A stretch of 35,099 nt of DNA. It comes from an uncultured archaeon (lineage in GTDB: Archaea; Aenigmatarchaeota; Aenigmatarchaeia; CG10238-14). Numbering within the stretch: position 1 is the stretch's first letter; every line of letters begins with the position of its first letter. The notes below the pieces were generated by a model. The model did not search any database, was not told the origin of the DNA, and saw nothing but the letters and a program-made list of their open reading frames with translations. A program made the position numbers and the translations under genes. Positions 7,643-32,931 of this stretch are shown here, in pieces. The stretch lies in NCBI GenBank assembly GCA_964392445.1, contig CAYMPD010000009.1, positions 1-35,099 of the forward strand, written 5' to 3'.

Positions 7643-7960
7643 TTAGAAGAGCGGAAAGAAGACTATACTTAACTCTCGTAGGAAATTGAGAAATAGTACT
7701 ACTGCCCCACCGTAAAGTATAATTCTTACAAACTTGTAATTCACTTCTCCAAGCAGAACACCCCCCATAACAAAAATTGTTAGTACCAGAGAACCAAGTG
7801 GATTTCCATCTAAAATCAATCTCATTACAGGATTACCTTCCTTGATGTAATGATTTCTGAATAGCATTGTTAGAATGTAAGACCCAAACCAGGATAAGGC
7901 AAATATAATTCTTGCCAGGTTTTCTATCCTCCAATTAGTACTATCTTCGCTGTCAACCAT
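7643..7960 (-). CDS. Small multi-pass membrane protein (DUF5658-like E-x-N-P motif)
   Basis: Three hydrophobic segments; EGNPVMR motif. Confidence 0.6.
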   Translation of the reverse strand: MVDSEDSTNWRIENLARIIFALSWFGSYILTMLFRNHYIKEGNPVMRLILDGNPLGSLVLTIFVMGGVLLGEVNYKFVRIILYGGAVVLFLNFLRELSIVFFPLF

Positions 7961-8139
7961 AAGTTTCCACCCATCAGTAATGTAAGAAAGGATATCAGTA
8001 TTCCCACAAAAATTTTATAGATCCGGTCTTCCCACGGATTTTTATCGTGTTGTTTCTTCTGAAGACTAATCAAAAGCTCTTGATTTTTAGCCATCATCTC
8101 TACAATATTTAATATCCTTCTTGCTTCGTGGTTATCCAT
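7924..8139 (-). CDS. Small protein with C-terminal transmembrane helix
   Basis: Amphipathic N-terminus, then IFVGILISFLTLLMGGNLWL. Confidence 0.6.
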   Translation of the reverse strand: MDNHEARRILNIVEMMAKNQELLISLQKKQHDKNPWEDRIYKIFVGILISFLTLLMGGNLWLTAKIVLIGG

Positions 8140-8150
8140 GTAATTCTTTC

Positions 8151-8405
8151 CTATTTTTTTTTCTTCACTGCATGATATGCAAAATCTGATACCAATGCTG
8201 AACCTGGTGGTAATCCTAGTGCCCCTAAACCTAGACCTTGTGCTCCAACCCTAAAGATTGTTGCAAAAACTCTACCAAATTCAACAGGTAATAGTTTCTT
8301 TGCTTCAGCACAATTCTCTGCATATCCTAACGCTGCTCTTGCTATAGCCACTAAAATATGTGGAACTACAGGGTTATTTACGATTTGTTCTACAGGTATA
8401 TTCAT
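8151..8405 (-). CDS. Small hydrophobic protein, holin-like by position
   Basis: Two hydrophobic or Gly-rich segments, KKKK C-terminus, GAGGTGA RBS. Confidence 0.55.
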   Translation of the reverse strand: MNIPVEQIVNNPVVPHILVAIARAALGYAENCAEAKKLLPVEFGRVFATIFRVGAQGLGLGALGLPPGSALVSDFAYHAVKKKK

Positions 8406-8427
8406 TTATTTTCTCACCTCATGAGTA

Positions 8428-8802
8428 TTATCTTACTATAATTTTTGTGGTAATTGTACTAGTTCCAGAGACGGTAAATCTCATTCCAGCACACATTGGT
8501 ACTTCACCAACCCAATAATAATCACTTCCATCGGTCTCAAAATCATTAGTAGAATCTAGAGTTTTCCAAAGATAAAATTCTGTCTCTGACCATCCTAGCC
8601 AAACACTAATAACAACGTCGGCTGTTGATTTAACAAACAAACTAAATTTTTCCCTACCAATCCAGAAAGGAGAATCAACATCATAATTGGTCCCATTATT
8701 CATTACTTGATCAAATAGAGTTTGTATTTCAAAATCAACAGCTGCGGTTTTAATTTCCTCTCTGGGAACTTCAAACTGCAATGAAATTGGTTTTCTAGCC
8801 AC
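8428..8802 (-). CDS. Beta-rich hypothetical protein, probably structural
   Basis: Overlaps the end of the large upstream gene; alternating hydrophobic strand pattern. Confidence 0.6.
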   Translation of the reverse strand: MARKPISLQFEVPREEIKTAAVDFEIQTLFDQVMNNGTNYDVDSPFWIGREKFSLFVKSTADVVISVWLGWSETEFYLWKTLDSTNDFETDGSDYYWVGEVPMCAGMRFTVSGTSTITTKIIVR

Positions 8803-11800
8803 CGGTGCTCACCTTCGTATCTGCATAAATTATCGGAGACCAGGTTCCATAAGGAGCCGAGTTTCCTGGAGTGTTATTAGCCCATATCCAAAAACATTTA
8901 GGAGAATTGAATCCTGTGTTGTTAAAAACCCAGTTATCCGTTTGATTAGTAACTTCACTAACATTTTCAGAGTCATAATGAGTACCATTTATCCAGAGAG
9001 ATATATTGTATAGCTCCGATGTATTAGATGCCAGAATAACTGATATGTTATAGATTTGTCCAGATTGCGTATTATTAATACAGAGAGGAGCTACAGTAGA
9101 AGATTGACCAACAGGTTCTTCTTTATTAAAAGTCTGATCAGTAAAAGACCAATAAAGAATTGTACCTTTGGTGCTATTAACATAAAAATCAATTCCAGGA
9201 TCAAGAATAATAGTAGAAGTGTTAGTTGAACTGACGGTATGATTTTCATCAGCAACACATTTAGATACCATTGCGTAATTGTAGGAAGGATAAACGGAAT
9301 TATTCATACTACCCAAAATGGTAGCGCTTTCAGTTCCATTTTTATTTTCAGTATTTCCAGTCACATTTAGAGTGAAGTTTGCTTCATTGGTAGAAGAATC
9401 ACACACAACTGTTAAATTAAAATCTTGTCCTCGATAATATGTGTAAGAACTGTTAGCAGTCCCATTTTGATAATTGATAGCATTGGTGGACTTTTTTGTT
9501 ACATCAAATTCTATAAATGAAGAATTCATATTTCCCCATGAATCATTAGCATAAAGTGTAAGATTGTGATCATTTCCGACTGCAAGCGATAGAGTAGTAT
9601 TCCAGGTGCTAATATTTGAATCTGTAACATTTGCAGCACCATTCAATGAATAAGCAGTCCAATTAGCATATTCTCCATAGGAAATATTTAGTTCAATCCC
9701 GTTCGCTGAATATGTGTAAGACGAATTTAAAGGGGTCGTAGTGTCTAACAACGGAGGAATACTTTCTCGTTTATAGAAATATACTTCATCAGATGTAATA
9801 TTTCCTGTTAAGGTATCCTTAGCATAAACTTGTAAGTAGTGAGATCCTATTGAAACTGATGTTAAATGAGTGTTTTGACATCCTGTTATAGTCGTATTAC
9901 TGCCACCATCTAAGATATACCAACATTCATTTGCACCTGTCTCCGTGATATTTAAATCTATTGTTGATGTACCATAAGTAGTATTTGTTGGATGATCCAG
10001 GCTTAAAGTTAATGCACTATCATCTATTTCCACAGTAGCATAATTTGTACATTCAACATTACCGATTGAATCATTAGCACATATCCGAATCCTCGCTGTG
10101 TCATTATCATCTAAATCACGATTTAAAAAATACCACGCCGCTCCCTCGTATGTTCCGGGAGATATTCTAGTATAATTTCTCCCATCGTATGTTGCATAAT
10201 ATTTGTGAACATTAGGTGTTCCTCCTTCAAATTGAAAAAACACCATCTCATCCCACCCTTTAATAGGTTGATAATGAGTAAAATAATCTTCTCCTGTTGT
10301 TATATCTATGATAAGGTCTTCCGAAATATTAGAACGAATTGCTCCTCTTCCTAGTGCTTGAACCTTTCCCTTTCCACCCCAATAAACATACCTGCTATCA
10401 ACATCTACTGGATAACCATATCCGTCATTACTCGAATCTGCGGTACCATCATCAATTACATTTAGAACATCTAAACCTGAATCCAATATCCAGAGCGTTC
10501 CGTTCTCCCCTACCAGATACAAATAACTCCCGTATGTATCCATGGTCATATCCCATGTATTGTCTATAATCCAATTTTCAACGAATGAACAATCGGATTT
10601 ATCCCATTTTGTTACATTTCCATCAACATCTGTAGAAAATATATAATCCGATATTCCACCTAAGTGGATTGTTTCATCAGATCCTGTTCCATTACATTCA
10701 TGTGATAATGAAGATGAGTTCCACTTATAAACTACACCTCCATCTGAAGGATAACAACTTGTTGTGTAAACATAATTTCCACTTAAATACACATCATGCA
10801 CGGTTTCTGGTGTGATAATTGAATCATCAAGTGACATAGAAGTATAGTTCCATTTCTGGAGACCAGAATTTACTTTATATCGAGAAGCATAAAGAAAAGT
10901 GTTGAAATCAAATCCTGTTAAAAGACTAGAACCTGCATCGGTTTCACTTGAAATTGTTAAATCGTCATTTGTTATGATAATAAATTTTCCTGTGGAATTA
11001 GTAACACCTAATGCTACAGTTGAATCATCTTTAACATCTATAGCAGTGAGATTAGCTTTAATATTTAAAGTTCCTCCAGAACTGAACCCTGTACTCGTGT
11101 AATTAGTATAACTCCCAGTCTCATTACTTTCAATCCATACCAAATCAAGGCTCGACGTATCATCTTTAACCCGTGTTGATATTTCAACTGACATATTAGA
11201 ACTAATCGCACCTCCTACTGGATCAGATTCAAAAACGGGACCTGTTGTATCTTGTGTCCAATAAACTGTTGAACTTCCCATATTTCCTTCTGAATCGTTG
11301 GCATAAACGGTAACATAGTGAACGCCATCAGATAACGAGGTTGTGGTATTGTATTCATTTACTTTTCCAGTGGTTGAATTAGCATTACCATCTATTGAAT
11401 AAGCTCCCCAGTCCACTGTTTCTCCGAAAGTAATATTCAACTCATTGGAAGATGTAGTATCATTTTGTGGTACAACTATCGATATAGTAGGTGAAGCTGT
11501 GTCTTCAGCAGTCCCATTAAAGTATTGAAATTCATAAAAATCATCAAGCTCAGAAGATGCTGAACACCCTGATCCTGCATCTTCTGAAGAAGTGGTATTC
11601 AAAATAATATATCTCCCCATTTTTTCATCGAGCTCAACTTCAAACCATCTGTTTTTTTCTTCAATTTCTTCATTACATACACAATTACTAGTTTTCCTTA
11701 AATTATTTCCCCAATCACTCGTAGAATTAGATATATGAACATAATCGATATTTGTGGGTTCCAATTCACATCGATGATAAAAAACTCTCACATAAGTTAT

Positions 11801-12556
11801 TGTGTTTGAATTGGAACCCGTATCTCCATAAATCCACCATTCCCCTTCATTTCGGTCCGTATAATCAGCCCATGAAGTACCTCCTATATTTCCATCACAA
11901 GCATAATCATCGGGTTTGCCTGATTCTTGATCGACCCCAACACAGCTGCTTGGAGATTTCCATTCTCCGATATCAGTACCTGAAATATTTAAAAAAATTC
12001 TGTTATTGTTGTAGTATCCCTGATCCTCTTTTTCTTGATAAAAATAACACATATCATCTTGGTTATAGCTCACAAGCATAAAAGTAATATTATTATCATG
12101 ACTAGATAATGATGATTGAACTTTCGATGTAACATCCCAACAACCCCATATATTTTCTGAGAAGTCCGCATAATCTAATTCCTGATCAGCCGAAGGAGCA
12201 TTTGTCCAGGTCACAGTATCATCATCCCATAAATGACCGTCCGAAACTGAATATATATACAGTCTGGAACTATCCGAAAATTCTGAACCATCACAGTAGG
12301 CACAAACAGTCGCCCCAGTTATAGATTTTCCCTTCCATGGTCTCAAGGAAAATTTTATCAGTCCTCGTCTGTCCGAAGTAGTGTCTTCTTTCCAAACCGC
12401 AAACCCATAAGTTCCCCCACCATCTTGATTTACATTAGGACTATCTTCTTTAATATCACAATCTTCTAACAGAGTTGCTTTACTCTCATCAGCATTTACA
12501 TTCCATAAGGATATTAAATAGACTAATAAAAATATTAAAATAATTTTCATTTTCAT
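8795..12556 (-). CDS. Large secreted adhesin-like glycoprotein 2 (DNRLRE-like, discoidin/F5-8C-like, Ig-like repeats, beta-propeller-like segment, shared C-terminal domain)
   Basis: Start at 12556 gives signal peptide MKMKIILIFLLVYLISLWNVNA; DRRGLIKFSL motif; DT..P.I..(P)QN.T Ig-type repeats; dozens of N-x-S/T sequons; paired Cys. Confidence 0.8.
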   Translation of the reverse strand: MKMKIILIFLLVYLISLWNVNADESKATLLEDCDIKEDSPNVNQDGGGTYGFAVWKEDTTSDRRGLIKFSLRPWKGKSITGATVCAYCDGSEFSDSSRLYIYSVSDGHLWDDDTVTWTNAPSADQELDYADFSENIWGCWDVTSKVQSSLSSHDNNITFMLVSYNQDDMCYFYQEKEDQGYYNNNRIFLNISGTDIGEWKSPSSCVGVDQESGKPDDYACDGNIGGTSWADYTDRNEGEWWIYGDTGSNSNTITYVRVFYHRCELEPTNIDYVHISNSTSDWGNNLRKTSNCVCNEEIEEKNRWFEVELDEKMGRYIILNTTSSEDAGSGCSASSELDDFYEFQYFNGTAEDTASPTISIVVPQNDTTSSNELNITFGETVDWGAYSIDGNANSTTGKVNEYNTTTSLSDGVHYVTVYANDSEGNMGSSTVYWTQDTTGPVFESDPVGGAISSNMSVEISTRVKDDTSSLDLVWIESNETGSYTNYTSTGFSSGGTLNIKANLTAIDVKDDSTVALGVTNSTGKFIIITNDDLTISSETDAGSSLLTGFDFNTFLYASRYKVNSGLQKWNYTSMSLDDSIITPETVHDVYLSGNYVYTTSCYPSDGGVVYKWNSSSLSHECNGTGSDETIHLGGISDYIFSTDVDGNVTKWDKSDCSFVENWIIDNTWDMTMDTYGSYLYLVGENGTLWILDSGLDVLNVIDDGTADSSNDGYGYPVDVDSRYVYWGGKGKVQALGRGAIRSNISEDLIIDITTGEDYFTHYQPIKGWDEMVFFQFEGGTPNVHKYYATYDGRNYTRISPGTYEGAAWYFLNRDLDDNDTARIRICANDSIGNVECTNYATVEIDDSALTLSLDHPTNTTYGTSTIDLNITETGANECWYILDGGSNTTITGCQNTHLTSVSIGSHYLQVYAKDTLTGNITSDEVYFYKRESIPPLLDTTTPLNSSYTYSANGIELNISYGEYANWTAYSLNGAANVTDSNISTWNTTLSLAVGNDHNLTLYANDSWGNMNSSFIEFDVTKKSTNAINYQNGTANSSYTYYRGQDFNLTVVCDSSTNEANFTLNVTGNTENKNGTESATILGSMNNSVYPSYNYAMVSKCVADENHTVSSTNTSTIILDPGIDFYVNSTKGTILYWSFTDQTFNKEEPVGQSSTVAPLCINNTQSGQIYNISVILASNTSELYNISLWINGTHYDSENVSEVTNQTDNWVFNNTGFNSPKCFWIWANNTPGNSAPYGTWSPIIYADTKVSTGG

Positions 12557-12558
12557 AT

Positions 12559-13089
12559 TTAATCCTCTATCTGACCCCATACTGCCCACGCATCCAAAAT
12601 CTTTTGAGTACTATCACTTCTATTATAAATCCAAACTTTAAGATGTTCTTTGTAAGTTAAAGGTTCTGCAGGAGCAAATATTATTCCATAATAACTTAAA
12701 ACAGGATTCCATATGTTACATCCTAATCCAATTCCCGAAGCAACTGTGGTAACTCCGATTCCAGTACAGAGATATGTATGTACATCCTCAGGAGAAAAAT
12801 CAAAATATGTTGATTGATCTTCAAATTGAATTCTTAATTTTAATTCAGATTTATTCTTCGCTATTACAACAACTCCCACAAGGAATCCTTTTCCAGTATG
12901 ATTTATCAATTCTGATGTAGAACGGCTGTCAACGTTTTCTTCTTCGATTCTGTTGAAGTGGGTTGATATTCTTTCCCAGTAAGTTGAGTTTTTTAACGAA
13001 TCAGCATCAACTTCCGCCCTATTTCCAGAATCATCTACGATAATAACTTCTCTTTCTCCTCCGGTTAAATTTAACGAACCTAAAGCCAA
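12559..13089 (-). CDS. Beta-rich hypothetical protein, probably structural
   Basis: Tiles in the late operon; GGTGAG RBS upstream. Confidence 0.65.
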   Translation of the reverse strand: MALGSLNLTGGEREVIIVDDSGNRAEVDADSLKNSTYWERISTHFNRIEEENVDSRSTSELINHTGKGFLVGVVVIAKNKSELKLRIQFEDQSTYFDFSPEDVHTYLCTGIGVTTVASGIGLGCNIWNPVLSYYGIIFAPAEPLTYKEHLKVWIYNRSDSTQKILDAWAVWGQIED

Positions 13090-13099
13090 TTTAACTCAC

Positions 13100-13453
13100 C
13101 TACAAACTTTTTAAATATTTAACTACATCGGAATCTCTTAACATTCCACGATTTTCTTCCCATCTTGCCCATAAGGATTCTAAAGTGTCAGCCCATTCAG
13201 TAACCGTACCGAAGTTGTCAATTGAATGTAAAACAGCATAGAAAGCTGATAGATTTGTTGCAGCATCTCTTATTAAACCATGTTTGTTAGCATTGAACGA
13301 ATTAGGATCCCTAAAAGAATGTTTCATAAAAGAATCTATAACTCCCTCTACCATAGTTATTATATTCTCTATTTCAGTATCTGATAAACTACCTGTATCT
13401 ATCTGATCACATCTATCCTTTACCAAAGTTGCAGTTGTATAATAAACCGTCAT
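13100..13453 (-). CDS. Head-completion/adaptor protein (gp6/gp15-like helical fold)
   Basis: YTTATLVK...SDTEIENIITMVEGVIDSFM...IRDAATNLSAFY pattern; downstream of MCP. Confidence 0.65.
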   Translation of the reverse strand: MTVYYTTATLVKDRCDQIDTGSLSDTEIENIITMVEGVIDSFMKHSFRDPNSFNANKHGLIRDAATNLSAFYAVLHSIDNFGTVTEWADTLESLWARWEENRGMLRDSDVVKYLKSL

Positions 13454-14062
13454 TTAACCACCTACAATACCCTTTGTTATTTTTAACAATCCCATAACGT
13501 CTTCTCTCAGATATAATTTTCCATAATATCTTGTGTGAGCTGTACGCTCAAAACCAAATAATTTTTCTAGTGATTCTAATTTCATTGTAGATTTAATATT
13601 CTTTAACTTCCCTTTTTCCTTCATACGTTTCAAAAATTGAAACACATCAAAATGGATGAACTTTCGCAGAGTTTTTCCCATCTTAATTTTATGATTCCAG
13701 GATCTCATTAATAAGACTGGGATATCATAATTTTTTCCGTTGTAAGTGACAAGCGTTGACCCTATAGGAAATTTATCTAACCACTCAATAAAATATTCAA
13801 TAATTCTTCTTTCTCCAGAAAAATCCTGTTCGTCTGAGCGGAATTGTTTTACTTTATCTTCTCCTCCTTCACTTATTATCCCTGCTCCTATCTCATATAT
13901 TGGATCATCCCCTTTTGAGATTACTTTACCTATAGGACTAGTACCAATATCAAAACCTATTATATGACCAGTTCTACCTGGAAGATTTTTTCTGTAGAGA
14001 ATTCTTGATATTCTCTCTGATTCCTTTAGTATTATTTTACTAACCATTTTAATCACTAACAA
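13454..14062 (-). CDS. RNase H-like 3'-5' exonuclease (YprB/RNase_H_2-like), possibly inactive
   Basis: GFDIGT, VTYNGKNYDIP, HFDVF, LESLE...GFER and Y..EDV motifs; the first motif has G where D-x-E is usual. Confidence 0.7.
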   Translation of the reverse strand: MLVIKMVSKIILKESERISRILYRKNLPGRTGHIIGFDIGTSPIGKVISKGDDPIYEIGAGIISEGGEDKVKQFRSDEQDFSGERRIIEYFIEWLDKFPIGSTLVTYNGKNYDIPVLLMRSWNHKIKMGKTLRKFIHFDVFQFLKRMKEKGKLKNIKSTMKLESLEKLFGFERTAHTRYYGKLYLREDVMGLLKITKGIVGG

Positions 14063-14675
14063 ATTTTATATCGAATGCAGCCTTCTTTTTTCCATGAACA
14101 AATCCCTGCGTTTGTTTTATAGATTTAATCGTTCTCTTGAACAGATTTAAAAAATCAGGACCTACTAGTCCAAAATCAAATCTCTGGGTAGCTAGATAAC
14201 CAGCATAATAACAAGATGCCTGGGCAACCCTATCCCAATCTGGTTCTTCTATTAGTTTCCAATAAGCATAATCACAAAACAAACCGATTTCTGCACCTGT
14301 AGAAGAATTATCATCATCAGTAGGTGCAGAAGAAAGAGTTATTATTCCATCTCTAGAATTTACTGTTGACACCGTTAGTTCATGTGAATATTCATTATTT
14401 TCATCATCCGTGTAATATTTTCCATGGACTGTGACGTCTTCTGAATTTATAGTTTTATCTCTCGTGATATCCGCAATTGGTTTAAATTTAGTTGTGAATT
14501 CCATGTTTGAACCATTAATTGTACCCTCTAATTCTTCGTCAAATATTTTTACGATAATCTGGTTAACAGTAAATTTATCTGCTTCATCAAGAATCATCAT
14601 AATGTCATTATCTTCGAGATCTTTCTCTTGGATTCCAGTATAATGTCTGAAGTTTTCAATAGTTGTAAATCCCAT
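14049..14675 (-). CDS. Head-completion/adaptor-like protein with inserted beta domain
   Basis: FTTIENFRHYTGI...DIMMILDEA N-terminus and RVAQASCYYAGYLA C-terminus flank a beta-rich insert (GTINGSN.EF...GIITLSSAP). Confidence 0.6.
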   Translation of the reverse strand: MGFTTIENFRHYTGIQEKDLEDNDIMMILDEADKFTVNQIIVKIFDEELEGTINGSNMEFTTKFKPIADITRDKTINSEDVTVHGKYYTDDENNEYSHELTVSTVNSRDGIITLSSAPTDDDNSSTGAEIGLFCDYAYWKLIEEPDWDRVAQASCYYAGYLATQRFDFGLVGPDFLNLFKRTIKSIKQTQGFVHGKKKAAFDIKFVSD

Positions 14676-14679
14676 TTAT

Positions 14680-14889
14680 CTAACCTGCATGTTTGATTGT
14701 AGCCGTAAATAAACTCGAACCATCATCTCCGCTTCCGTAATGCTCAATATTTATCACTTGCTCTTTGGATATCTTATGTGTTTGTAACCAATTACAAACT
14801 CCTCGAGCTGTGCCTTGAATTACCCACCAAGGACTACCAGAGCCTTCTTCTCCAGTAACCTCATGGGTCATTACAAGCTGTTCTGGCAT
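14680..14889 (-). CDS. Small hypothetical protein, paralog A
   Basis: Shares PW.V..GTA..V...L......KE.VINI.H.G with 14890-15054. Confidence 0.75.
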   Translation of the reverse strand: MPEQLVMTHEVTGEEGSGSPWWVIQGTARGVCNWLQTHKISKEQVINIEHYGSGDDGSSLFTATIKHAG

Positions 14890-15857: not shown

Positions 15858-15870
15858 TATTATCTTCCTC

Positions 15871-16325: not shown

Positions 16326-16392
16326 TAAACATCGACCTCCCCGATGAACCCTAATATTTTCAACCCCTTCTTCCCATTTAAATTATAACTCA

Positions 16393-16752: not shown

Positions 16753-16769
16753 CTCCTCCGTTTAAAATT

Positions 16770-18507: not shown

Positions 18508-18508
18508 A

Positions 18509-24182: not shown

Positions 24183-24460
24183 TATTCCTCAACTTCAAAA
24201 TAATCACGAGTAATTGTCACAGCAGTATCATCAGTGACTTTCCATTCAACAATCCATCTTCCTTCTTCTGGGGAACTCGGTATATTATATTTATAAGAGT
24301 ATTTCCCTGTCGAATCATTAGTTGGAGTTGATTCGTCAATTTTAACTGTCCCATCTGGGTTAGTAACAGATATCACTATTGATGTGGGAGTTGTTAGATT
24401 ATTATCTGTATCAAAAACTTCAATCTTACAAACAACTGTCTCGCTCGCTTGAAATTTCAT
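24182..24460 (-). CDS. Small Ig-like/BppU-N-like beta-sandwich protein
   Basis: ETVVCKIEV.D.DN.L..P..I.I.VTNPDGT...TGKY.Y...G.W.VEW pattern. Confidence 0.6.
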   Translation of the reverse strand: MKFQASETVVCKIEVFDTDNNLTTPTSIVISVTNPDGTVKIDESTPTNDSTGKYSYKYNIPSSPEEGRWIVEWKVTDDTAVTITRDYFEVEE

Positions 24461-24720
24461 TCAAATTTCACCTTCAGTATGTTTCCCCTATGTAAAGAGG
24501 AACTTAATTTCATATTTTGTGTAATTTTGGATACTAACTTTGAACCACGTGATAAACTAGATTTTAATCTTATTAGTCCTTGGGAAATTGATGAGCGGAG
24601 ATTTAATCCCCTCGTTATTCTGGAAACTAATTTACTTCCTCGTTCAATTCTAGTAACGTATGTTACTGTATCTCCTTTTAATGGAACTACATGTTCCATT
24701 TCAAGTGACTGTATTCCCAT
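24457..24720 (-). CDS. Small basic repeat protein
   Basis: Quasi-repeats, with RGSKLVS(R/K)IT twice; ATGA-type overlaps on both sides. Confidence 0.6.
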   Translation of the reverse strand: MGIQSLEMEHVVPLKGDTVTYVTRIERGSKLVSRITRGLNLRSSISQGLIRLKSSLSRGSKLVSKITQNMKLSSSLHRGNILKVKFE

Positions 24721-27700
24721 TATTGATACCTCTTTGAATCTGCTCTGAGATGTGGATTGTAAGTTCCCGCCTCTGATTGGTTGTAATTAGACCACATCCA
24801 AAAACATGTTTCATCGTTAAAAGTTAGATTAGTAAATATCCGATAATAGCTAGTATTTGTTAATTTTGTTGAACCAACATAAGTTCCATCATCATCTGCT
24901 TTGACTTCAAAAGAATAATCTTCTGTACAATTAACATCTGTGAATAGAGATACATTTAAACCATTAGTTGTGTAAGTTGGTTCTGTTACATTAACACAAA
25001 CTGATCCATGAGTGGAATTTTGACCTGTAGGCTGAACCTCTGTAGAGTTCCCATATAATGGTTGAAAACTAAGTGTTACTCCGCTGTTTAGTGATAAGGT
25101 GAAATCGGCTGATACATTAAGAAGTGAATAATCTTCTGAATAAGTATAATTTTCATTCGCAGTACAGTTAACCGAGATATTATTGTAGTCGTAAGATGGG
25201 AACCAATCCACTCCGACATCAGTTACATTTTCTATTGTACCATCAGTTTCTGAATCAAAACTGTCTCCGAAAACAGTGTGATTACCAGTTAGAGTTACGG
25301 TTTGTTGATTATTACCACAAGACCCCGTTATATTTATTGTTTGGTTTTTATGAAATTCCTGATCAGAAGTTGAACCATTAATTTCTAAACTTGCACTTGA
25401 GATTGCTTTTGAAATATCAAAGTTTAATGTAAGACCAGTGCTGTTAGATGTGTAGTTTACATTTCCTGTTATATTAAATTTATAGACCCAATAAGCGGCT
25501 GGTGATAATTCTGTATAATTAATGAAATCAGTATCAGTCTTCTTTTGAGTTCCGTTCTGGTAAATATAAAGCGTTCCTGCTGTGGAACCATAAGTCGCCT
25601 GAACTGAAGCATTTACCGTCAATCCATAAGTTCCCGACTGATCAGAAGTAGAATCATTTAACCATGCGGTAATAGGATTAGTTGAATTTTGAGTAACTGT
25701 TAGTAAGTAAGCCTTTTCTCCTGATGTGTAATTAACATTTCCTGAAGTGTTGTAAGTGTAGTTATAAACTGCCGCACCCAATTGAGTTGTATCATTTATT
25801 CCATTTACAGTACCAATTACAGTATCATTTCTATAGAGTGTAAATGTTATTGTTTGACTTGAAAACACACCCGAAGTATAATTACCTGTAGCGTTATCAC
25901 TCGCTGGATAAGTAATTGACTTATCTGAAGCAGCATCATCTATAGTCAACCAAATGTAATCTGAAGTGGAAGAATTCTGATTCATAGTTAAAATAATCTC
26001 CTCTTCCTTGAACGTGTAGTTGGTACATCCACTCACGTTGTAAGTGAAATTATAAGCCTGAGTTCCAGTTAAATCTAATTCCCCGTTCGTTATAATGGTC
26101 CCGTTTTGTGCTTTCTTGTAAGTACAATCTGAATCTCCTGAATTGATTTCAGATGCCTGATAATTTGTTTGATTTGGATAAGTTCTTGTCTGGGATGCGG
26201 TACTAGACTCATCTAAAGTTAAAGTTAAAGTTGGGGCTATTGCGTTAATTGTGTAAGTAGAAGAATCAGTACAAGATGTTACGTTTTCAGAATTAGTTCT
26301 ATTACAAACAAATGCGTATGCAGCTGCACCATATTCTATTGAAGTTGCATTTTCAGTAGCAGTTACATCTGTATCATTTCTCCATAATTTACCGTTAGTT
26401 GAATCATAATAAGATACTACACACTGTGGAGTTACACTGGTTCCATAATCTTGAGGACTAGCCTTGTTAAACGATAAAGTACAAGTTGAGCTTAATTGAG
26501 AAATATTAAATTCTCTGAAGGATGTGTTCCAATTATTGGTTGAATCATTAGCGTAAATAGTTACGTTGTGATATCCCTCTGGTAGATAAATTGTTGTATT
26601 TAATTCTGCAACCTGACCAGTGCTAACATTTATTCCTTCATCTATCGAGTATGCGCCCCAATCCACTGTCCCAGAAAATGTTATATTCAGTTCATTTCCT
26701 GAAGAAGACCAGGTATAATTAGTAGAATTAACTGGTGTATCTCCTGAAATACTGATAGGAGTGGTGTCTAGGGTAAAGTCGTACTTGTCGTTGGTTGCTG
26801 CGGTATCTTTGTTACTCAAATCAGTGTCTTGACAAGCGATATAAACTGATTTACTTCCATCAGATCCCTGATCCGAAAGAGTACAAGTTATTGATGTAGT
26901 TCCGTCTCCACTACAATCATCATCATCCGACATATCATCATAAGACTCATCCGAAGCAGAAGCCCGACAATCTCCGTTTTCATCAAGTGTCAATACGATA
27001 TCTGGAGTAGGATCTGAAGTGGTATATGGACTTGAATCATCTCCTCCTATAGAGGATAAGGTCTGAACTGGTGGAGTGGTATCTAAAGTAAAATCCACTT
27101 TTGTATTCTGAGCTGATGAATGAGAGTTGTTATAAGAATCATTACAAGCAATATATACGGACTTTGAACCATCACTACCCTGATCAGATAAGGTACAAGT
27201 TATTGATGTAGTTCCATCACCAGAACAATCGTCGTCGTCAGACATATCATCATAACTTTCATCTGAGGCGGAAGCTCTACAATCCCCATTCTCATCTAAA
27301 GTTAGCACTACATCTGGGGTAGTATCCGATGTTTTATATGGACTTGATGCGTCACCACCAACAGAACTTATAGTTATTACAGGTTCTGTAATATCAATAG
27401 TCCATACCCTTATAGTGTCTGCTGTATTAAAAGAACAATTCATATTTCCCATAGTATCATTACAACAAAAAGAAACATTATGATGATTTTCATCAACATT
27501 CGACATTTCATTATTCCAATTTCCCGTTGAGTTTGTCATTGTTATATTAGATGTTCCGTTCATAGAATATCCACACCAATCTCCATCTTCATCCAGAGTC
27601 ACATTAAACCAGATTGTCTGGGTATTATAAGTTGTATTATCTGGTTCACCTATTGTTATAATGGGAGCAGTTGCATCAGCTGTGGTATTTTCAAATTCTA

Positions 27701-28232
27701 TCTCATAAAAACCCCCATCCGAACCCGTGCCACAATCACCACTTCCTAACCAATTTTCAGCAACATCACATGCTTCCCCCGATGTAATATTTGGTATAAC
27801 TTTTAGATACCTCCCCACAGTATCGGTGATATCAATTTCATGCCAGGTATTAGGACCGCCTTCCCAACAACAATTAGAACCTATAGAAGTTTCACCATCA
27901 CATGCAGCATCATCACAAACAAAAATCTCCGAAATACCACACATATAATAATCTGAGTACCCACTTTTTCCACCAGCTACTCTAATTTTAGTAACCTTAC
28001 TGCTAACAGATAAATCTAAGATAACCCAATGTGCTCCAAGATTATGATCTTCCCATCCACCTTCCGCTCCAGTATCTCCATCGATTAGTGCTGTTGCATC
28101 ACAACCGGATTCTCCTCCTCTCGAATCTTGGACTGCTGAAGGAGAATACCAAGTAGCAAAAACCGAAGGACTAGCTAGAATAAAAGTTATAAGAGATATG
28201 AACGCAATTAAAACTCTCCAATCAATTTCCAA
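24720..28232 (-). CDS. Large secreted adhesin-like glycoprotein 1 (discoidin/F5-8C-like, Ig-like repeats, duplicated acidic Cys domain, shared C-terminal domain)
   Basis: TTG start after GGGGGAG; signal peptide MEIDWRVLIAFISLITFILASPSVFA; ALIDGD...W...HWVILDL motif; dozens of N-x-S/T sequons. Confidence 0.8.
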   Translation of the reverse strand: MEIDWRVLIAFISLITFILASPSVFATWYSPSAVQDSRGGESGCDATALIDGDTGAEGGWEDHNLGAHWVILDLSVSSKVTKIRVAGGKSGYSDYYMCGISEIFVCDDAACDGETSIGSNCCWEGGPNTWHEIDITDTVGRYLKVIPNITSGEACDVAENWLGSGDCGTGSDGGFYEIEFENTTADATAPIITIGEPDNTTYNTQTIWFNVTLDEDGDWCGYSMNGTSNITMTNSTGNWNNEMSNVDENHHNVSFCCNDTMGNMNCSFNTADTIRVWTIDITEPVITISSVGGDASSPYKTSDTTPDVVLTLDENGDCRASASDESYDDMSDDDDCSGDGTTSITCTLSDQGSDGSKSVYIACNDSYNNSHSSAQNTKVDFTLDTTPPVQTLSSIGGDDSSPYTTSDPTPDIVLTLDENGDCRASASDESYDDMSDDDDCSGDGTTSITCTLSDQGSDGSKSVYIACQDTDLSNKDTAATNDKYDFTLDTTPISISGDTPVNSTNYTWSSSGNELNITFSGTVDWGAYSIDEGINVSTGQVAELNTTIYLPEGYHNVTIYANDSTNNWNTSFREFNISQLSSTCTLSFNKASPQDYGTSVTPQCVVSYYDSTNGKLWRNDTDVTATENATSIEYGAAAYAFVCNRTNSENVTSCTDSSTYTINAIAPTLTLTLDESSTASQTRTYPNQTNYQASEINSGDSDCTYKKAQNGTIITNGELDLTGTQAYNFTYNVSGCTNYTFKEEEIILTMNQNSSTSDYIWLTIDDAASDKSITYPASDNATGNYTSGVFSSQTITFTLYRNDTVIGTVNGINDTTQLGAAVYNYTYNTSGNVNYTSGEKAYLLTVTQNSTNPITAWLNDSTSDQSGTYGLTVNASVQATYGSTAGTLYIYQNGTQKKTDTDFINYTELSPAAYWVYKFNITGNVNYTSNSTGLTLNFDISKAISSASLEINGSTSDQEFHKNQTINITGSCGNNQQTVTLTGNHTVFGDSFDSETDGTIENVTDVGVDWFPSYDYNNISVNCTANENYTYSEDYSLLNVSADFTLSLNSGVTLSFQPLYGNSTEVQPTGQNSTHGSVCVNVTEPTYTTNGLNVSLFTDVNCTEDYSFEVKADDDGTYVGSTKLTNTSYYRIFTNLTFNDETCFWMWSNYNQSEAGTYNPHLRADSKRYQ
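26832..27308 (-). repeat. Intragenic tandem duplication (period 312 nt) with a 55-aa identical core
   Basis: 27144-27308 and 26832-26996 both encode VLTLDENG...SKSVYIAC; 31 of 55 codons differ, all synonymously. Confidence 0.95.
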
Positions 28233-28947
28233 TTTTTATCTCCCCCTTCATTGGTTTAAACCATAATTCAACATCTTCTCCATCAGTCCAATGTCTTTGA
28301 AATAAATCTGTAGATCCATCCCAGTGAAATACAAAATTATATGTGTCGTCAAACCTAATTGTGGTTCTGTCTCCAAAATCAAAAGGGATAACGTTAGAAT
28401 CTAAATCTGTAACTTTAAGTCTCAATTGATTTAGTCTATTTTTATTTTCTGGTTCAAATCTAACATTTATATCTGTATGGTCCTGAAAAACAAAAATTGT
28501 TTCAATTATCTCTCCTCCATATCCAGAAGCATAATTATAAGCGTAGTATGGTGTAATTCTCCTGACAACAACCTGTTTTTTATCTTCCTGTACATCCATT
28601 GAAATCAAACTTGATTTTCTCCAGAGTCCTCTAACCCATTGGTCTTCGCCATAGGTTCGATAATAATCCAGATACCATTTATAGCAAGCAACTTTATTTC
28701 TTCCCTGGTATTGACAAACTTCATCTTTTGTTACACGATAGCGATTGAAACTTAAGCCTTGCGTTCTCTGAATAACATTAATCTCGTTTTTATCTGGGTG
28801 ATGAATTACGAATAAATTTTGGTTAGGATTAGTAGATAATAACCACCTGATATCTGATAAATATAATGTTCCTACTCCGACTACACTTATAACCAGGATT
28901 GCTCCTAAAACCTGTTTGTAGTTAATCTTATTCCAGTCTATTCTCAT
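28222..28947 (-). CDS. N-terminally membrane-anchored or secreted hypothetical protein
   Basis: Hydrophobic VLGAILVISVVGVGTLYL near the N-terminus; beta-rich body; GGAGGAGG RBS. Confidence 0.7.
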   Translation of the reverse strand: MRIDWNKINYKQVLGAILVISVVGVGTLYLSDIRWLLSTNPNQNLFVIHHPDKNEINVIQRTQGLSFNRYRVTKDEVCQYQGRNKVACYKWYLDYYRTYGEDQWVRGLWRKSSLISMDVQEDKKQVVVRRITPYYAYNYASGYGGEIIETIFVFQDHTDINVRFEPENKNRLNQLRLKVTDLDSNVIPFDFGDRTTIRFDDTYNFVFHWDGSTDLFQRHWTDGEDVELWFKPMKGEIKIGN

Positions 28948-30512
28948 ATTTTAACCTCCTCCATGAATGTTTTCTTTCCTTTAGGAAATGAGTAGAATTT
29001 TGGTACCTGGAATACGTCCAATATCTGTAAAGGGTAATACCACATGAACTTCATATCTTTGAACCTCTCCTTTCTGTCTTCATCTTTTAGTCTGTGCCTC
29101 CAGAATAATTGTTCAAATTGTTCCTGGTCTATTTTAACAGGACTGTCTAGTGAAACCTTACCCCATATATAATTACCCGATACTAAAGCCAACGGCTTAC
29201 CAATAAATTTATGGTTTTCAATTGACTTTACTATCGCAGTTTTTCTTCCCTGGGCGATTAATTTTCCACCTGGCGGATCCACATAAATTCCCGCCACAGT
29301 TTTAATCCTCTCTTTAGATAATTCTCTTCTTCCAATCTCAACATCTTTAGGAAGATTCAACATCTCTCTAGCTTCTTCCCATTTAATTACAGGTCTCCCC
29401 TCAACAAGAGTAGCACCGAGTATATTGATTTTCTCTGCAATCCTCTCATCTTTCAAAGGTAAGACATCATTCCACTGGATCTTACAATATCCATTTATTC
29501 CTTCTTTCTGCAGGACCCGTTGGAAGATTTGAGTTTCAACTATGGCTGCAAGTCTCTCTTGTAAGGGGCTGAGGATTGGATTTAGAGTTTGTTGTAGAGC
29601 TTCTGCGGTTGCTTTTGTATGAGTGCTTTCGTCTCCAAGAAGTATGTATTTAGGAACTCCAGTTACACTTACAATTTGATTGACAAAATAAGTAGGATAT
29701 TCAACAGCAGAGCTAGGAAATTGTGGGTCGTGAATTTTTAATTCATAATCATCTGTATGCGTGAAATGACTTGCTGCTTCAATCTCATCTAGTAATGAAT
29801 CCACATATTCTACGTCGGTATCTTTAGGAGTCCAGTCTTCTTTCTCTTTTAGAATTGCTTCATGAAGCGGCCATCCCTTTTTGAAGATAGCCTGGCTTAA
29901 TCCCTCCTCGATGTTTGCTAATCTTTCCATCTGATTGAATATCGGCATGATTAATGGGATTCCATCTACTTCATCCCCTATAGTCCTGAATGTTAAATGA
30001 ACAACTTCATCCCTTTCAAAGTCATGTTTCTTACCAGATGATTTATCCTCAAATGTAAATCCCACTGGCTTCCTTGAATCATCTAACTGTATTTCCTCCA
30101 TAGGGTTTCTTTTGAAATCTGTGGAGACTGGATGCAAGGGCATTAATGCAACATATTTATCCCCGCTTGAATTAGCAACCAATAACCTGAATGCGTTACC
30201 AAATATTTCTGTATCAATAGCCATCTGTCTTATCATCATGTTGAAATTCATTCCGAGATTATCATTAGCCTTAACATTCTTCAGAAATCTTTCAATACAC
30301 TCCTTAACACTGTCATTCTCAAAAACCAGATTGTATCCTCTATTTATAATTAGGTTAGCACGGATGTTAATTCCACGATGAACTAAAGGATTAGTTAAAT
30401 ATGCAGTTCTCAAATCTTCCTTTCTAATTGTAACTACTTGCGCTTTCTCCCTTGCTACAGCCGAGAATGGTACCTTGACTGTTGCCCGTTCCTGGGGCGT
30501 TAAACTTAACAT
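28944..30512 (-). CDS. Portal protein with C-terminal ASCH-like domain
   Basis: Y..NPLV.R.I..RA, D..IFGNAF, LHP, V.H......GIPL motifs and position after terL; last ~120 aa GIY.....GKLIAQGRKTAIVK...G...L...HR match the ASCH (PUA-like) pattern. Confidence 0.85.
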   Translation of the reverse strand: MLSLTPQERATVKVPFSAVAREKAQVVTIRKEDLRTAYLTNPLVHRGINIRANLIINRGYNLVFENDSVKECIERFLKNVKANDNLGMNFNMMIRQMAIDTEIFGNAFRLLVANSSGDKYVALMPLHPVSTDFKRNPMEEIQLDDSRKPVGFTFEDKSSGKKHDFERDEVVHLTFRTIGDEVDGIPLIMPIFNQMERLANIEEGLSQAIFKKGWPLHEAILKEKEDWTPKDTDVEYVDSLLDEIEAASHFTHTDDYELKIHDPQFPSSAVEYPTYFVNQIVSVTGVPKYILLGDESTHTKATAEALQQTLNPILSPLQERLAAIVETQIFQRVLQKEGINGYCKIQWNDVLPLKDERIAEKINILGATLVEGRPVIKWEEAREMLNLPKDVEIGRRELSKERIKTVAGIYVDPPGGKLIAQGRKTAIVKSIENHKFIGKPLALVSGNYIWGKVSLDSPVKIDQEQFEQLFWRHRLKDEDRKERFKDMKFMWYYPLQILDVFQVPKFYSFPKGKKTFMEEVKI

Positions 30513-30535
30513 TCTTCTTAGTATTGACAGTTAAT

Positions 30536-30892
30536 TCACCTTGAACTCATTTTAGTTAATCCTCTTGCTTTTTCGATTGTTTCTCTTCCCCTTTCCTTAG
30601 TAGTCTTTTCAAGACGTGGTTCAGGAGCGGTAAACCTTCTCAGTTGTGCCGACTCCCTTCTGAACAGCAATGGAATTTCAAAGAAGAGCAGATAATAAGC
30701 TAAACCAAAACCTGCTACATATTTTTCTACGAAAGGAATTTTCAGAAACAACCACGCCAGGTAATTTAAGATGGAGCCATATACCCCCACTATTTTTATA
30801 AACTGGAAGAGAGGAAATGTCCATATAAGGTAGAGAACACTCATTAGATTATTTTTTTGTTTAGAATCTTGATTTCGATTTTGAGAGTTCAT
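30536..30892 (-). CDS. Membrane protein between terL and portal
   Basis: Two to three aromatic and hydrophobic segments followed by a basic C-terminus. Confidence 0.6.
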   Translation of the reverse strand: MNSQNRNQDSKQKNNLMSVLYLIWTFPLFQFIKIVGVYGSILNYLAWLFLKIPFVEKYVAGFGLAYYLLFFEIPLLFRRESAQLRRFTAPEPRLEKTTKERGRETIEKARGLTKMSSR

Positions 30893-30932
30893 GCTACCAT
30901 AAGGAATATTTGAAAATCTTATGCATTTATCT

Positions 30933-32387
30933 TTAACGGAAAAGGGGTTTATGGCGCTTTACAAATACTTTCTCCCGAACATTGGGTCTCTTCTTAATTA
31001 CCGTTTTAAGGACTGGCTCTCTCTTTTTTCTTAATTTTGCGTCAGCCTGGAGTGCTAAAGCGATTGACCAGAAAGATTCTCCGTGCCCATCCTTTGATTC
31101 CACTGCATCTAAATTAGAATCCACTGCCATAATCTGGGATATTAATCTGTCGTCGTTTGGAAGAACTATTCTGTTTTCAGTTACAATTCTGTCGAAGTTA
31201 GCCGCCCATTTGAATTTAGATCTGGAAGTAAATTTAACTGGTTTGAGTATTCTGCTTAAGAGTCCCTGTTCTTCAAACCCCTCGAATTCCCCTCTTGTAG
31301 CGTCATACCATCCGTAATTAATATTGAAGCAATCAATGATGTCATTCAGTTTATGGACCTGCATTTTGTATTCTGTTTTATCCATGAACTCATGATAGAC
31401 TGTTGTCCATCTGTTATCATCTTTTAACTCAAATACTATTGCGTGGGTAGGATGTACTTTTTTTCCGACATCAACCCCGATTGTTCGGATGTTATCATTT
31501 GCTGCATAATGTTGTTGGACTAAATCGGAATCTACACACTTCATTATTCTTTCCCTTTTGAACCAAGAGAATTCTTCACTGAATGGTTTGCATAAATATT
31601 CCTGATTAAATATTCTAGTTCCACGTTCTTGTTTTCTCTTGATTAACTCCTCCCAGGGCATGTGTTCTTTCCAAAGAACTTCCTTATTAACAAAATTTGT
31701 TATAGCAGGTAATTCAAGAACTTCGAACCTAGACATGATATTATCATCGAAGAAAAAGTCCTTGTTTGTTTGAGGAGTACCAACCACATGAAGAAATCCG
31801 TTCTTGCTGGGCATATCCATAATCTGGGTAACAAAAATTCTATTTATTTTTTTCACTTTGACTGGGTCCAGTTTATTTTCTGGGTCTTGAAATGGGTCAT
31901 CTACATAGACTCCCGCACAATGAATTCCTCTTTTGAAAGCGAGCATACCATGAGGTTTTAAGATATATTCATTGGGATCCCCAGTCCAGGAATATTTGAT
32001 TATACTTTCCGCACGTTTTTTTAAGTCTTCAAGGCTAGCAAACCAGGGATTAAGAGATAATAAGTCTTTTAATTTTCTCAAGTGGTACGCCGCCATGTTT
32101 CTTTCATAAGAAAAATAATGACATTCTATACTACCCTTTCCTCTGAATCTCCACATAAGCCAAGCAAAATGAGCGTACAGACTAGTAGATTTAAAATGGT
32201 CTTTAGCACTGATACGAGCCGTTTTAGGATTTTTTTCAAGAAAGTCACAAGTCTTTTTGACATGTTCCCCGCCTACGAATGGTTTAAAACTTTCTGAGAA
32301 TATATTTTCAACGAAAAACCAGAAAGATTTTTGTGCCTTGCGGTCATACTCAAGTTGCTGTTTTCTTGACAACTCGTTCGGGTTCAT
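30933..32387 (-). CDS. terL: Terminase large subunit
   Basis: N-terminal ATPase (SAKDHFKST Walker A variant, VYVDDP Walker B, VVGTP motif III), FNQEYLC linker, C-terminal RNase H-like nuclease (IGVDVG, YDAT). Confidence 0.92.
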   Translation of the reverse strand: MNPNELSRKQQLEYDRKAQKSFWFFVENIFSESFKPFVGGEHVKKTCDFLEKNPKTARISAKDHFKSTSLYAHFAWLMWRFRGKGSIECHYFSYERNMAAYHLRKLKDLLSLNPWFASLEDLKKRAESIIKYSWTGDPNEYILKPHGMLAFKRGIHCAGVYVDDPFQDPENKLDPVKVKKINRIFVTQIMDMPSKNGFLHVVGTPQTNKDFFFDDNIMSRFEVLELPAITNFVNKEVLWKEHMPWEELIKRKQERGTRIFNQEYLCKPFSEEFSWFKRERIMKCVDSDLVQQHYAANDNIRTIGVDVGKKVHPTHAIVFELKDDNRWTTVYHEFMDKTEYKMQVHKLNDIIDCFNINYGWYDATRGEFEGFEEQGLLSRILKPVKFTSRSKFKWAANFDRIVTENRIVLPNDDRLISQIMAVDSNLDAVESKDGHGESFWSIALALQADAKLRKKREPVLKTVIKKRPNVREKVFVKRHKPLFR

Positions 32388-32931
32388 TTTCTACTTCCTC
32401 TTCTACTTCTTCTTCTTTGGTTTCATCTTCATTCTTTTCATATATTCCTACGTTAGATCTGACATATCCACCTGAAACCTTGACAAATTTAGTTTCTCCT
32501 TTCATAGGAATTACCCGTAACGTTCTTAAATTAATTAGCCTTTCAGAATCCAATCTAGAAATACAATATTCTAATTTCACGATAGCCTGCCAGAGCTTAT
32601 ATCTTTTAGGTTCTTTCTCTGCAATTTTTGTAAGCATTTTTACCTGGTCTTCCAGCCTTTTCTTTCTCATGTAATAATTAACTTCTATTTCTCCCACTAA
32701 CTGGTCAAGATTATACATACGTTTTCTTGCTTCCTTACCGAGTAATTTTTGATATCTCCACACTGTTGACCTGTGAACTCCGAGTTTTTCACCCAGTTCT
32801 GTAGGAGAGAAAATACCATGTCTCATATATTCTATCATCTTTCTGATGTTAGCCCTTTGCTGGGGTTGTAAATCATCTATATTAACATCTTCCTTTAGGA
32901 AATCTACAAGTTCAATATTTTCTTTCTGCAT
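32350..32931 (-). CDS. terS: Probable terminase small subunit (HTH plus coiled coil)
   Basis: HTH PTELGEKLGVHRSTVWRY, helical middle, directly upstream of and overlapping terL. Confidence 0.6.
   Translation of the reverse strand: MQKENIELVDFLKEDVNIDDLQPQQRANIRKMIEYMRHGIFSPTELGEKLGVHRSTVWRYQKLLGKEARKRMYNLDQLVGEIEVNYYMRKKRLEDQVKMLTKIAEKEPKRYKLWQAIVKLEYCISRLDSERLINLRTLRVIPMKGETKFVKVSGGYVRSNVGIYEKNEDETKEEEVEEEVENEPERVVKKTAT

Follow-up and report, generated by a model that had tools for sequence, protein, structure and literature searches.

Introduction

The short-tailed viruses P22, with its adaptor gp4 and tailspike gp9, and HSTV-1, an archaeal podovirus of the Shortaselviridae, combine an HK97-type capsid with a portal, a terminase, a protease and a neck adaptor, and they have no tape measure, tube or sheath. 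Here we describe a virus, known from its genes alone, that is alike in these respects, its protease and adaptor being candidates, and is encoded by a 35,099-nt stretch of DNA from an uncultured archaeon of the Aenigmatarchaeota (hereafter the window; bases 1-35099 of the 41,710-bp contig CAYMPD010000009.1, referred to as C9). The relatives of the window virus carry a gene for a beta-helix or lectin-type fibre after the neck genes, a further likeness to P22 and HSTV-1, and the sizes are comparable, HSTV-1 having 32 kb and the window lineage approximately 30-42 kb. Unlike P22 and HSTV-1, however, the window virus has no recognised protein of the size or family of a nozzle or hub, and the structural proteins of HSTV-1 showed no significant similarity to the window proteins. 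The fibre slots of the window also differ from those of P22-type spikes in holding sequon-rich proteins that appear to be exported.

The nearest named virus is the Altiarchaeum virus Altivir_8_HURL (BK059162.1), whose capsid and portal proteins are 28% and 23% identical to those of the window. Its genome, small and circular, likewise has head genes while no tail is annotated in it, but it is only 22.6 kb long, is very distant and has no annotated exported giants.

Tailed viruses are the textbook example of cytoplasmic assembly. In the Pleolipoviridae, pleomorphic viruses of archaea that are membrane vesicles and have no HK97 capsid, portal or terminase, the spikes are Sec-exported and N-glycosylated and have a C-terminal anchor. 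These spikes and the giant proteins of the window have in common that they are virus-encoded, exported and N-glycosylated (in the window, by prediction) attachment proteins of archaea. A second point of reference is Llp of phage T5, a small, early-expressed lipoprotein with a signal peptide that is encoded beside the receptor-binding gene and blocks the receptor. Llp provides a model for a receptor-masking function, although it does not have the modular build of an adhesin. In the parts of Wu et al. 2024 (PMC11310336) used here, large lectin-type ConA/LamG genes on DPANN-linked viruses are regarded as adhesion factors, that is, as auxiliary genes of benefit to the host, and those parts report no export signals, sequon excess, placement in structural slots or virus-restricted C-terminal domain for them. 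The literature on nanohaloarchaeal viruses and the ribosome profiling of HFTV1 yielded nothing on exported fibre proteins.

Two giant proteins, predicted to be exported, in the fibre slots of a late operon

Contig C9 is a near-complete viral genome of ~42 kb, from an uncultivated virus of archaea that was binned together with a DPANN archaeon. The bin (1.2 Mb in 54 contigs, 95% complete) contains an archaeal small-subunit ribosomal RNA. The GC content of C9 is 36%, compared with 30-37.5% (mostly 33-36%) on the other contigs of the bin, and C9 has no terminal repeat. The late operon comprises 25 co-oriented open reading frames (ORFs) on the minus strand, running from 32931 to 7643, with gaps that mostly range from -38 to +68 nt and reach 147 and 161 nt at the two widest, and a terminator-like hairpin past its end at 7501-7481. 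To place its genes we read the neighbourhoods of six capsid relatives with 55-76% capsid identity (L010, L011/L019, L012, L013, L014 and L015), of L020, which was found through the giant protein, and of the distant L006 from IMG/VR (32% capsid identity). Signal peptides and transmembrane segments were called from Kyte-Doolittle windows and the -3/-1 rule. The two giant proteins and the genes around them are:

24720..28232, minus strand: predicted exported, sequon-rich giant adhesin, copy 1, 1170 residues; Shine-Dalgarno GGGGGAG, start TTG 28232, signal peptide
8795..12589, minus strand: predicted exported, sequon-rich giant adhesin, copy 2, listed as 1264 residues; Shine-Dalgarno GAGGA, start ATG, signal peptide
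8798..9514, minus strand: C-terminal module common to the giants; Ig/PKD-like domain and virus-restricted terminal beta-sandwich
30536..30892, minus strand: membrane protein of 118 residues with two hydrophobic segments, between terL and portal
28222..28947, minus strand: signal-anchored protein of 241 residues; one N-terminal transmembrane segment, residues 10-28
24457..24720, minus strand: small basic repeat protein of 87 residues with overlapping starts and stops; 59-residue homologue at the equivalent place in L020
24182..24460, minus strand: MG2/Ig-like small protein of 92 residues; PF01835, 35.6 bits (cut-off 32.8)
12559..13089, minus strand: beta-rich protein of 176 residues ahead of copy 2; found only in the window and L010 (62% identical)
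8428..8802, minus strand: beta-rich protein of 124 residues after copy 2; found only in the window and L010 (52% identical)

The initial annotation had pointed to two Sec-signal proteins of more than 1100 residues with roughly 50 or more N-x-S/T sequons each, and our counts agree. Copy 1 has 63 sequons, against 26.8 +/- 4.5 in composition-preserving shuffles, and copy 2 has 56 against 24.2 +/- 4.3, with 31 and 22 Cys residues respectively. The reverse motif S/T-x-N occurs 36 times in copy 1 and 24 times in copy 2, and the +1 and +3 offsets give 20-28. Since the excess is directional, it is not a by-product of a composition rich in Asn, Ser and Thr. Both giants begin with a signal peptide led by a Shine-Dalgarno sequence. 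In copy 1 it is MEIDWRVLIAFISLITFILASPSVFA, followed by TW, read from TTG 28232. In copy 2 it is MKMKIILIFLLVYLISLWNVNA, followed by DES, read from ATG 12555 (MKMKIILIF...VNA, then DES), which is the likely start and lies directly past the stop of the 176-residue gene. The hydrophobic N-terminal windows cover residues 1-19 and 9-27, with an n-h-c pattern and small residues at -3/-1, and these sites look cleavable in both window giants. A signal peptide or anchor is likewise present in L010, L019, L020 and more distant members, and the N-terminal segments of L019 and of the distant proteins P0129 and P0134 look like uncleaved anchors. A programmed frameshift fusing the 176-residue and 1264-residue ORFs was considered and dropped, the stop, Shine-Dalgarno sequence and ATG at this junction being those of a normal restart.

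On these grounds the two paralogues look like exported N-glycoproteins, and the bin encodes AglB/STT3 (74.7 bits, a 746-residue ORF on C6). They are probably modular adhesins with lectin-like, Ig/PKD-like and beta-propeller parts. Residues 578-733 of copy 2 gave a weak beta-propeller match, relatives of the giants carry Laminin_G_3 or DUF2341, and profile scans detected no catalytic domain in either window giant. Copy 1 also contains an internal duplicated segment spanning an Asp/Ser/Cys-rich stretch (window 26832-27308, minus strand), whose two copies, according to the initial annotation, have one protein sequence but differ in their codons.

Exported giants lie at fixed places in the four closest viruses. 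In the post-portal slot of the window, the portal gene is followed by the genes for the 241-residue protein, the 1170-residue giant, the 87-residue protein and the MG2-like protein of 92 residues. L020 has the portal, a homologous giant of 1700 residues (E 4e-241; 109 sequons vs 42 expected), a 59-residue protein and the MG2-like protein, and L019 has the portal, a homologous giant of 1638 residues (88 sequons vs 35 expected) and the MG2-like protein. In the distant L006 a signal-less protein of 659 residues with no sequon excess lies ahead of the MG2-like gene. In the post-neck slot the window and L010 share one arrangement: a protein of 176 and 168 residues respectively, an exported giant (1264 and 656 residues) and a protein of 124 residues. 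The L010 homologue of copy 2 likewise has a signal peptide, and its 37 sequons compare with 13 expected.

In relatives with 55-63% capsid identity, the genes that follow the 117-residue neck gene encode signal-less proteins of fibre or spike type. L013 has a NosD beta-helix protein in this slot (25.2 bits, cut-off 23.6), L011 and L012 have a DUF2341 protein (31.6 bits, cut-off 23.4) and L015 has the tail fibre phrog_9851 (E 5e-10), all without signals. Fibres or spikes encoded after the neck genes, as in podovirus-type viruses, were thus found in the relatives, and in the window this slot is taken by the exported protein of 1264 residues. Depending on the virus, the two slots are thus occupied by cytoplasmic proteins, as in some relatives, or by exported, glycoprotein-like giants, as in the window clade. 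Both kinds are present in L011/L019, a relative of 41.3 kb, which has an exported giant together with an ordinary signal-less DUF2341 fibre.

The giant genes overlap their neighbours at the junctions (-4, -11, -1, -4, -1, -31 and -8 nt), an arrangement that would couple their translation to that of the structural genes and that does not fit a free-standing moron. The gene for the 118-residue membrane protein, ahead of the portal gene, has homologues at the equivalent place in L020 (119-469, E 9e-33) and L019 (3360-3677, E 2e-9), with the strongly conserved motif QF[IV]KIVGVYG.ILNY. This family was found in exactly those viruses that have an exported giant behind the portal, and no homologue was seen ahead of the L014 portal. 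It could be a membrane partner for the portal or for the giant. The 241-residue gene, which overlaps the portal stop by 4 nt, had no homologue in the relatives examined, and L020 has no gene at this place; unlike the adjoining giants, its product has 0 sequons among 17 Asn. The MG2-like protein gave a weak match to the head-tail adaptor phrog_442, is conserved in L011, L020, L005 and L006, and lies directly ahead of the adaptor in L006.

A rare C-terminal domain restricted to viruses

According to the alignments, all giants share the same end module. A profile of this module had 18 matches among 1.84 billion representative proteins, 13 of which match its terminal part and end at or near their own C-terminus; most of those 13 proteins begin with a hydrophobic segment and are enriched in sequons. 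Neither the 95%-complete host bin nor the signal-less fibres contain the module, and a word-index search with the C-terminal region returned only the query itself. The N-terminal hydrophobic segment, the directional sequon excess and the C-terminal domain always co-occur, and all three are absent from the signal-less fibres.

Wherever the surroundings of a member of the module family were examined, it belonged to a viral structural module. The distant members P0134 and P0129 (L021:3635-7962 and L022:2-3981) come from long-tailed viruses of other samples, where they follow right behind a tape measure, proteins of 162-185 residues and a protein of 40 residues, with a baseplate-like protein next. 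This position is the tail-tip module of long-tailed viruses. Both proteins are N-terminally anchored and sequon-rich, and they combine a beta-helix with the rare C-terminal domain.

The C-terminal 239 residues were modelled with AlphaFold2 as an Ig/PKD-like domain and a terminal beta-sandwich (pLDDT 71.7). In fold searches the Ig/PKD-like part reached Z ~8, and matches included the carbohydrate-binding module/Ig region of a Micromonospora sialidase (E 4e-4, TMq 0.37) and assorted phage 'virion structural' proteins (TMq <=0.35). Predicted complexes of this module with the 176- and 124-residue proteins gave a median score of 0.00, with one run at 0.74. The look-alikes of the 176-residue protein in the ESM Atlas are unnamed hypothetical proteins of ~157 residues, 82-89% of them from tailed viruses. 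The 124-residue protein had no family match and led to unnamed clusters in the ESM Atlas; weak leads from the look-ups of these two proteins include XepA.

A head and neck with no recognisable long tail

The head and neck genes of the operon are:

32350..32931, minus strand: terS-like small terminase candidate, 193 residues; HTH_11/HTH_23 below cut-off
30933..32387, minus strand: terminase large subunit (terL), 484 residues; phrog_38 (E 1.7e-20), phrog_5909 (E 2.6e-8)
28944..30512, minus strand: portal, 522 residues with a C-terminal extension; PF04860, 50 bits (cut-off 39.1), phrog_9232 (E 2.4e-23)
18509..19651, minus strand: prohead protease/scaffold candidate, 380 residues; no family match, directly ahead of the capsid gene
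17542..18507, minus strand: HK97-type major capsid protein, 321 residues; phrog_1357 (E 2.7e-15), phrog_544 (E 1.8e-9)
16802..17473, minus strand: fibre- or decoration-like protein, 223 residues, with conserved ends and a variable middle
14049..14675, minus strand: head-tail adaptor candidate, 208 residues, by synteny with L006; homologues in 7/7 relatives
13100..13453, minus strand: family-wide neck protein, 117 residues; after the adaptor and ahead of the fibre slot in all relatives

Capsid, portal and terL, the hallmarks of the Caudoviricetes, were all recognised, and the profiles assign the capsid to the HK97 type. PF05065 remained below its cut-off for the capsid protein, which has 174 homologues, many of them with the PF25209 or N4-gp56 family name. 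The terS-like gene overlaps the start of terL by 38 nt and has a positional homologue of 166 residues in L019, whose terL matches that of the window at E 7.5e-129. The protease/scaffold candidate has homologues in all relatives (33-56% identity), with the homologous part lying behind the ligase in L006. Homologues of the 223-residue protein (226-594 residues) come after the capsid gene in relatives, with the N-terminus and last strand conserved, and the profile scan found no family match for it. In the six closer relatives the common order is protease/scaffold, capsid, a variable protein of 223-594 residues, a protein of 119 residues, a charged HhH protein, proteins of ~205 and ~115 residues, and one or two larger genes. 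In L014 the portal gene comes directly after the fibre gene, so that nothing else fits between neck and portal.

The initial annotation had described this operon as head and adaptor genes without recognisable tail genes, which Pfam and PHROGs scans of the operon ORFs bear out. Neither these ORFs nor the others scanned on the contig matched a family of tape measure, tube, sheath, terminator or baseplate proteins, a negative that applies to recognisable families, as divergent genes may escape profiles. Tail genes outside the window, for which a check had been suggested, were not detected either: the remainder of the contig (L001, 6.5 kb past a 100-N gap) contains small early-type ORFs, and no structural gene was found among the larger ones, which were scanned. 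The tape measure profile phrog_1533, which matches 10/14 control genomes, had no match in the 1.2-Mb bin, and the same profiles detect the tape measure in L006, L021 and L022. The tape measure is also absent from all six closer relatives in the DNA examined. On the evidence of these profiles, the tape measure, tube and sheath expected of a long tail appear to be missing from this virus.

The 208-residue protein is a head-tail adaptor by position, since its homologue in L006 directly precedes the head closure protein Hc1 (phrog_161) and Neck1 (phrog_5), with a tape measure (E 1.9e-94) following. L006 thus indicates that this head module can also join a long tail. For the 117-residue family 169 homologues were found, and Pfam assigns none of them to a family. 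Its profiles, including one from a 50-row alignment, matched no PDB entry below E 0.25; hhalign showed no relation to the head-closure protein of L006 and a weak N-terminal match to the 208-residue family (20% probability). No nozzle, hub or knob was found by family match, and the candidates of 117, 176 and 124 residues had no PDB match by profile. In L012 (7270-9081) two tandem 117-residue domains are fused behind a subtilisin-type protease (Peptidase_S8, phrog_3677, E 7e-50), which hints that this domain is a docking module for enzymes or fibres attached to the neck.

The lineage is one of 30-53-kb contigs without a tape measure, tube or sheath, in which a neck of the 208-residue adaptor and the 117-residue protein is followed by the fibre slot. 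Since neck genes and signal-less fibre or spike genes are present in relatives that have no tape measure, the particle is most likely short-tailed, and neither tail-less nor enveloped. No exported giant was seen in the ~21 kb around the capsid genes of L013 and L015 (55-57% capsid identity), and therefore the head would be independent of a glycoprotein coat. The initial annotation had named the absence of the glycoproteins from relatives with the same head genes as evidence that would tell against its interpretation; such absence was found in part, for these two viruses.

Possible roles of the giant proteins

Genes for exported, sugar-coated-looking proteins in the fibre slots of a structural operon pose a topological puzzle. 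We tentatively propose that the giants are attachment proteins, exported and glycosylated, which are added to the particle at lysis. In this model the adhesins would be made together with the head proteins and pass through Sec to the outside of the cell. There they would be N-glycosylated by AglB of the host, probably acquire disulfide bonds and be held between the membrane and the surface layer (S-layer), or on the membrane itself. When the membrane proteins encoded at the end of the operon breach the membrane, the adhesins would dock on finished particles via their virus-restricted C-terminal domain, and on the particle they would serve as host-attachment proteins. We favour a role on the particle because the giants occupy fibre-slot positions, are tightly coupled to structural genes, combine mosaic ectodomains with a single virus-only end domain, and recur at the tail tip of other viruses. 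Fibres join fibreless T4 particles in vitro, and joining outside the cell is therefore physically plausible. In a broader form, the proposition is that particle assembly in some archaeal tailed viruses ends outside the cytoplasm, with Sec-exported, AglB-glycosylated and probably disulfide-bonded attachment proteins docking onto necks or tail tips at lysis. We consider this possible, with more reservation than the role of the giants themselves; such assembly in two compartments has, to our knowledge, no precedent among tailed viruses.

Several points weigh against the proposal that the giants join the particle. We know of no tailed virus that adds exported proteins to its particle, the docking step is purely our inference, and no particle partner of the giants was identified. 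The signal peptides are predictions judged by hand rather than by SignalP. The 'adaptor' label rests on synteny, the neck proteins having no profile match to solved adaptors (a profile search of the PDB with the adaptor family gave nothing below E 0.25). The modelled C-terminal fold matches only generic Ig and beta-sandwich structures, none of them specific, and its terminal beta-sandwich alone is barely covered. The model of the 176-residue protein, from a two-row alignment, was too poor for a fold search (AlphaFold2, pLDDT 41.9). Attachment could in truth depend on the variable 223-residue protein, in which case the giants would be free to act on the cell surface. The host assignment rests on binning and on one shared family of protein repeats: the bin yielded no CRISPR array that would link it to the virus, and a search of 60 related genomes brought up no related capsid gene. 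Lastly, the host-like central repeats of copy 1 are as expected of captured cell adhesins.

These repeats bear directly on the main alternative, that the giants are displayed on the surface of the infected cell and are not parts of the particle, which we regard as somewhat doubtful. It is in line with the second option of the initial annotation, a remodelling of the host surface by late genes, and this option still competes with a role on the particle. Residues 635-1038 of copy 1 consist of repeats that are 32-38% identical to giant surface proteins of the bin itself. These, on C12 (24-10835; at least 3603 residues, 192 sequons) and on C28 (54-5537; at least 1827 residues, 79 sequons, 67 Cys), match the viral giants in sequon density, and the common repeats point to domain exchange between virus and host surface genes, as far as the sequences can tell. 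With their signal peptides, directional sequon excess and many Cys residues, the window giants resemble these cellular proteins, and a cell-surface role would require no novel assembly step. Displayed on the cell, they could be adhesins by which the DPANN cell stays attached to its own host, or they could mask or bind the virus receptor, leading to superinfection exclusion or keeping progeny off debris. Wu et al. 2024 (PMC11310336), in the parts used here, likewise read ConA/LamG genes of CPR/DPANN viruses as cell-surface modification. The virus would then have to attach by other proteins, for which the 223-residue family is an available candidate. The presence of both an exported giant and a signal-less DUF2341 fibre in L011/L019 fits such a division of labour, but the post-neck slot of the window and of L010 lacks the kind of signal-less fibre seen there in relatives. 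A cell-surface role also leaves the position of the giants in fibre slots, with translational coupling to portal and neck genes, to be accounted for, as well as the C-terminal domain, which is absent from the host bin and in the members read lies always in viral structural modules, including a tail-tip one. In addition, late expression in a lytic cycle would leave little time for any benefit from adhesion.

An involvement of the giants in egress appears improbable. Exported late, they would bind and loosen the glycosylated S-layer from outside together with the membrane proteins at the end of the operon, as an archaeal counterpart of secreted endolysins. The genes concerned are:

7643..8405, minus strand: three small hydrophobic proteins (84, 71 and 105 residues) at the operon end, with transmembrane segments

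The 105-residue protein has two transmembrane segments and matches DUF5658 (26.7 bits, cut-off 25.2), the 71-residue protein has one segment and the 84-residue protein is only moderately hydrophobic; there is also a faint match to a holin family, and two of the three proteins have homologues in L010. The initial annotation had listed a signal-anchored protein and four small membrane proteins in the operon, of which the anchored 241-residue protein stands, and the number four is approximate in view of the 84-residue protein. A possible lysis cassette with a holin-like character at this place would suit an egress function of the giants, as would their late, exported nature and lectin-like modules, the co-occurrence of the conserved 118-residue membrane protein with them, and the beta-helix domains, typical of glycan-cleaving enzymes, in distant members of the family. 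Against this, the window giants have no detected catalytic domain, two paralogues of more than 1100 residues with many Ig-like modules have the look of adhesins and not of enzymes, and relatives in the same head-gene lineage manage without them.

The proposal of the initial annotation that this is a tail-less, possibly enveloped, herpes-like HK97 virus, in which a membrane or glycoprotein coat would surround the head as it leaves the cell and the giants would be envelope spikes held by N-terminal helices, has in its favour the lack of tube and tape measure genes, the uncleaved-anchor look of L019, P0129 and P0134, the conserved two-segment membrane protein by the portal gene and the signal-anchored 241-residue protein, but we consider it very unlikely and not supported, as the neck genes are conserved, relatives with the same head and neck genes have signal-less fibres and no exported giants in the DNA examined, the exported family is also found in tail modules that have a tape measure, a setting that makes an envelope implausible, profile scans recognised no matrix, budding or membrane-scission gene, and the -3/-1 sites of the window giants look cleavable.

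Between particle attachment, which we prefer, and display on the cell, the consequences differ: either assembly in some archaeal tailed viruses ends beyond the membrane, or up to a fifth of a 42-kb genome is used to re-dress the surface of a dying host. Either answer would add something new about the ways in which the viruses of host-dependent DPANN archaea reach or keep their hosts. The archaeal virus lineage without a tape measure and with a minimal neck is itself new, as are the conserved placement of the giants in two slots and the strict association of a signal and a sequon excess with a C-terminal domain that is very rare and restricted to viruses. This domain provides a usable handle for searches, and the giants are a concrete set of proteins for proteomics.

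Other genes of the operon and the bin

Two enzyme genes are found among the structural genes:

19701..24182, minus strand: ligase/phosphoesterase-like polyprotein, 1493 residues; PF01068 (E 2e-45), RNA_ligase, C-terminal helix-turn-helix
13454..14062, minus strand: RNase H-like 3'-5' exonuclease, 202 residues; PF13482, 46.3 bits (cut-off 22)

The exonuclease gene is inserted between the adaptor and the 117-residue gene, and among the relatives examined this was seen only in the window and L010 (13143-13730). All relatives have the large ligase/LigD-phosphoesterase-like polyprotein as a constant element of the head module, but its division into ORFs differs among them. The polyprotein is a single ORF of 1493-1583 residues in the window and L010, is fused to the protease/scaffold in L006 (7216-9999, 927 residues), and is split in L013 (1368-2942 and 6515-8476) and L015 into a ligase of 418-524 residues and a part of ~650 residues. 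This conservation suggests a packaged or head-associated enzyme for the repair of DNA ends.

A search of genome contigs for close relatives of the virus gave none, and searches of viral and metagenome contigs gave two and three respectively, all of them distant or on short contigs. Elsewhere in the bin, a second and distant terL-like stretch (C7:15093-15731, 24% identity over 233 residues) may belong to another viral element.

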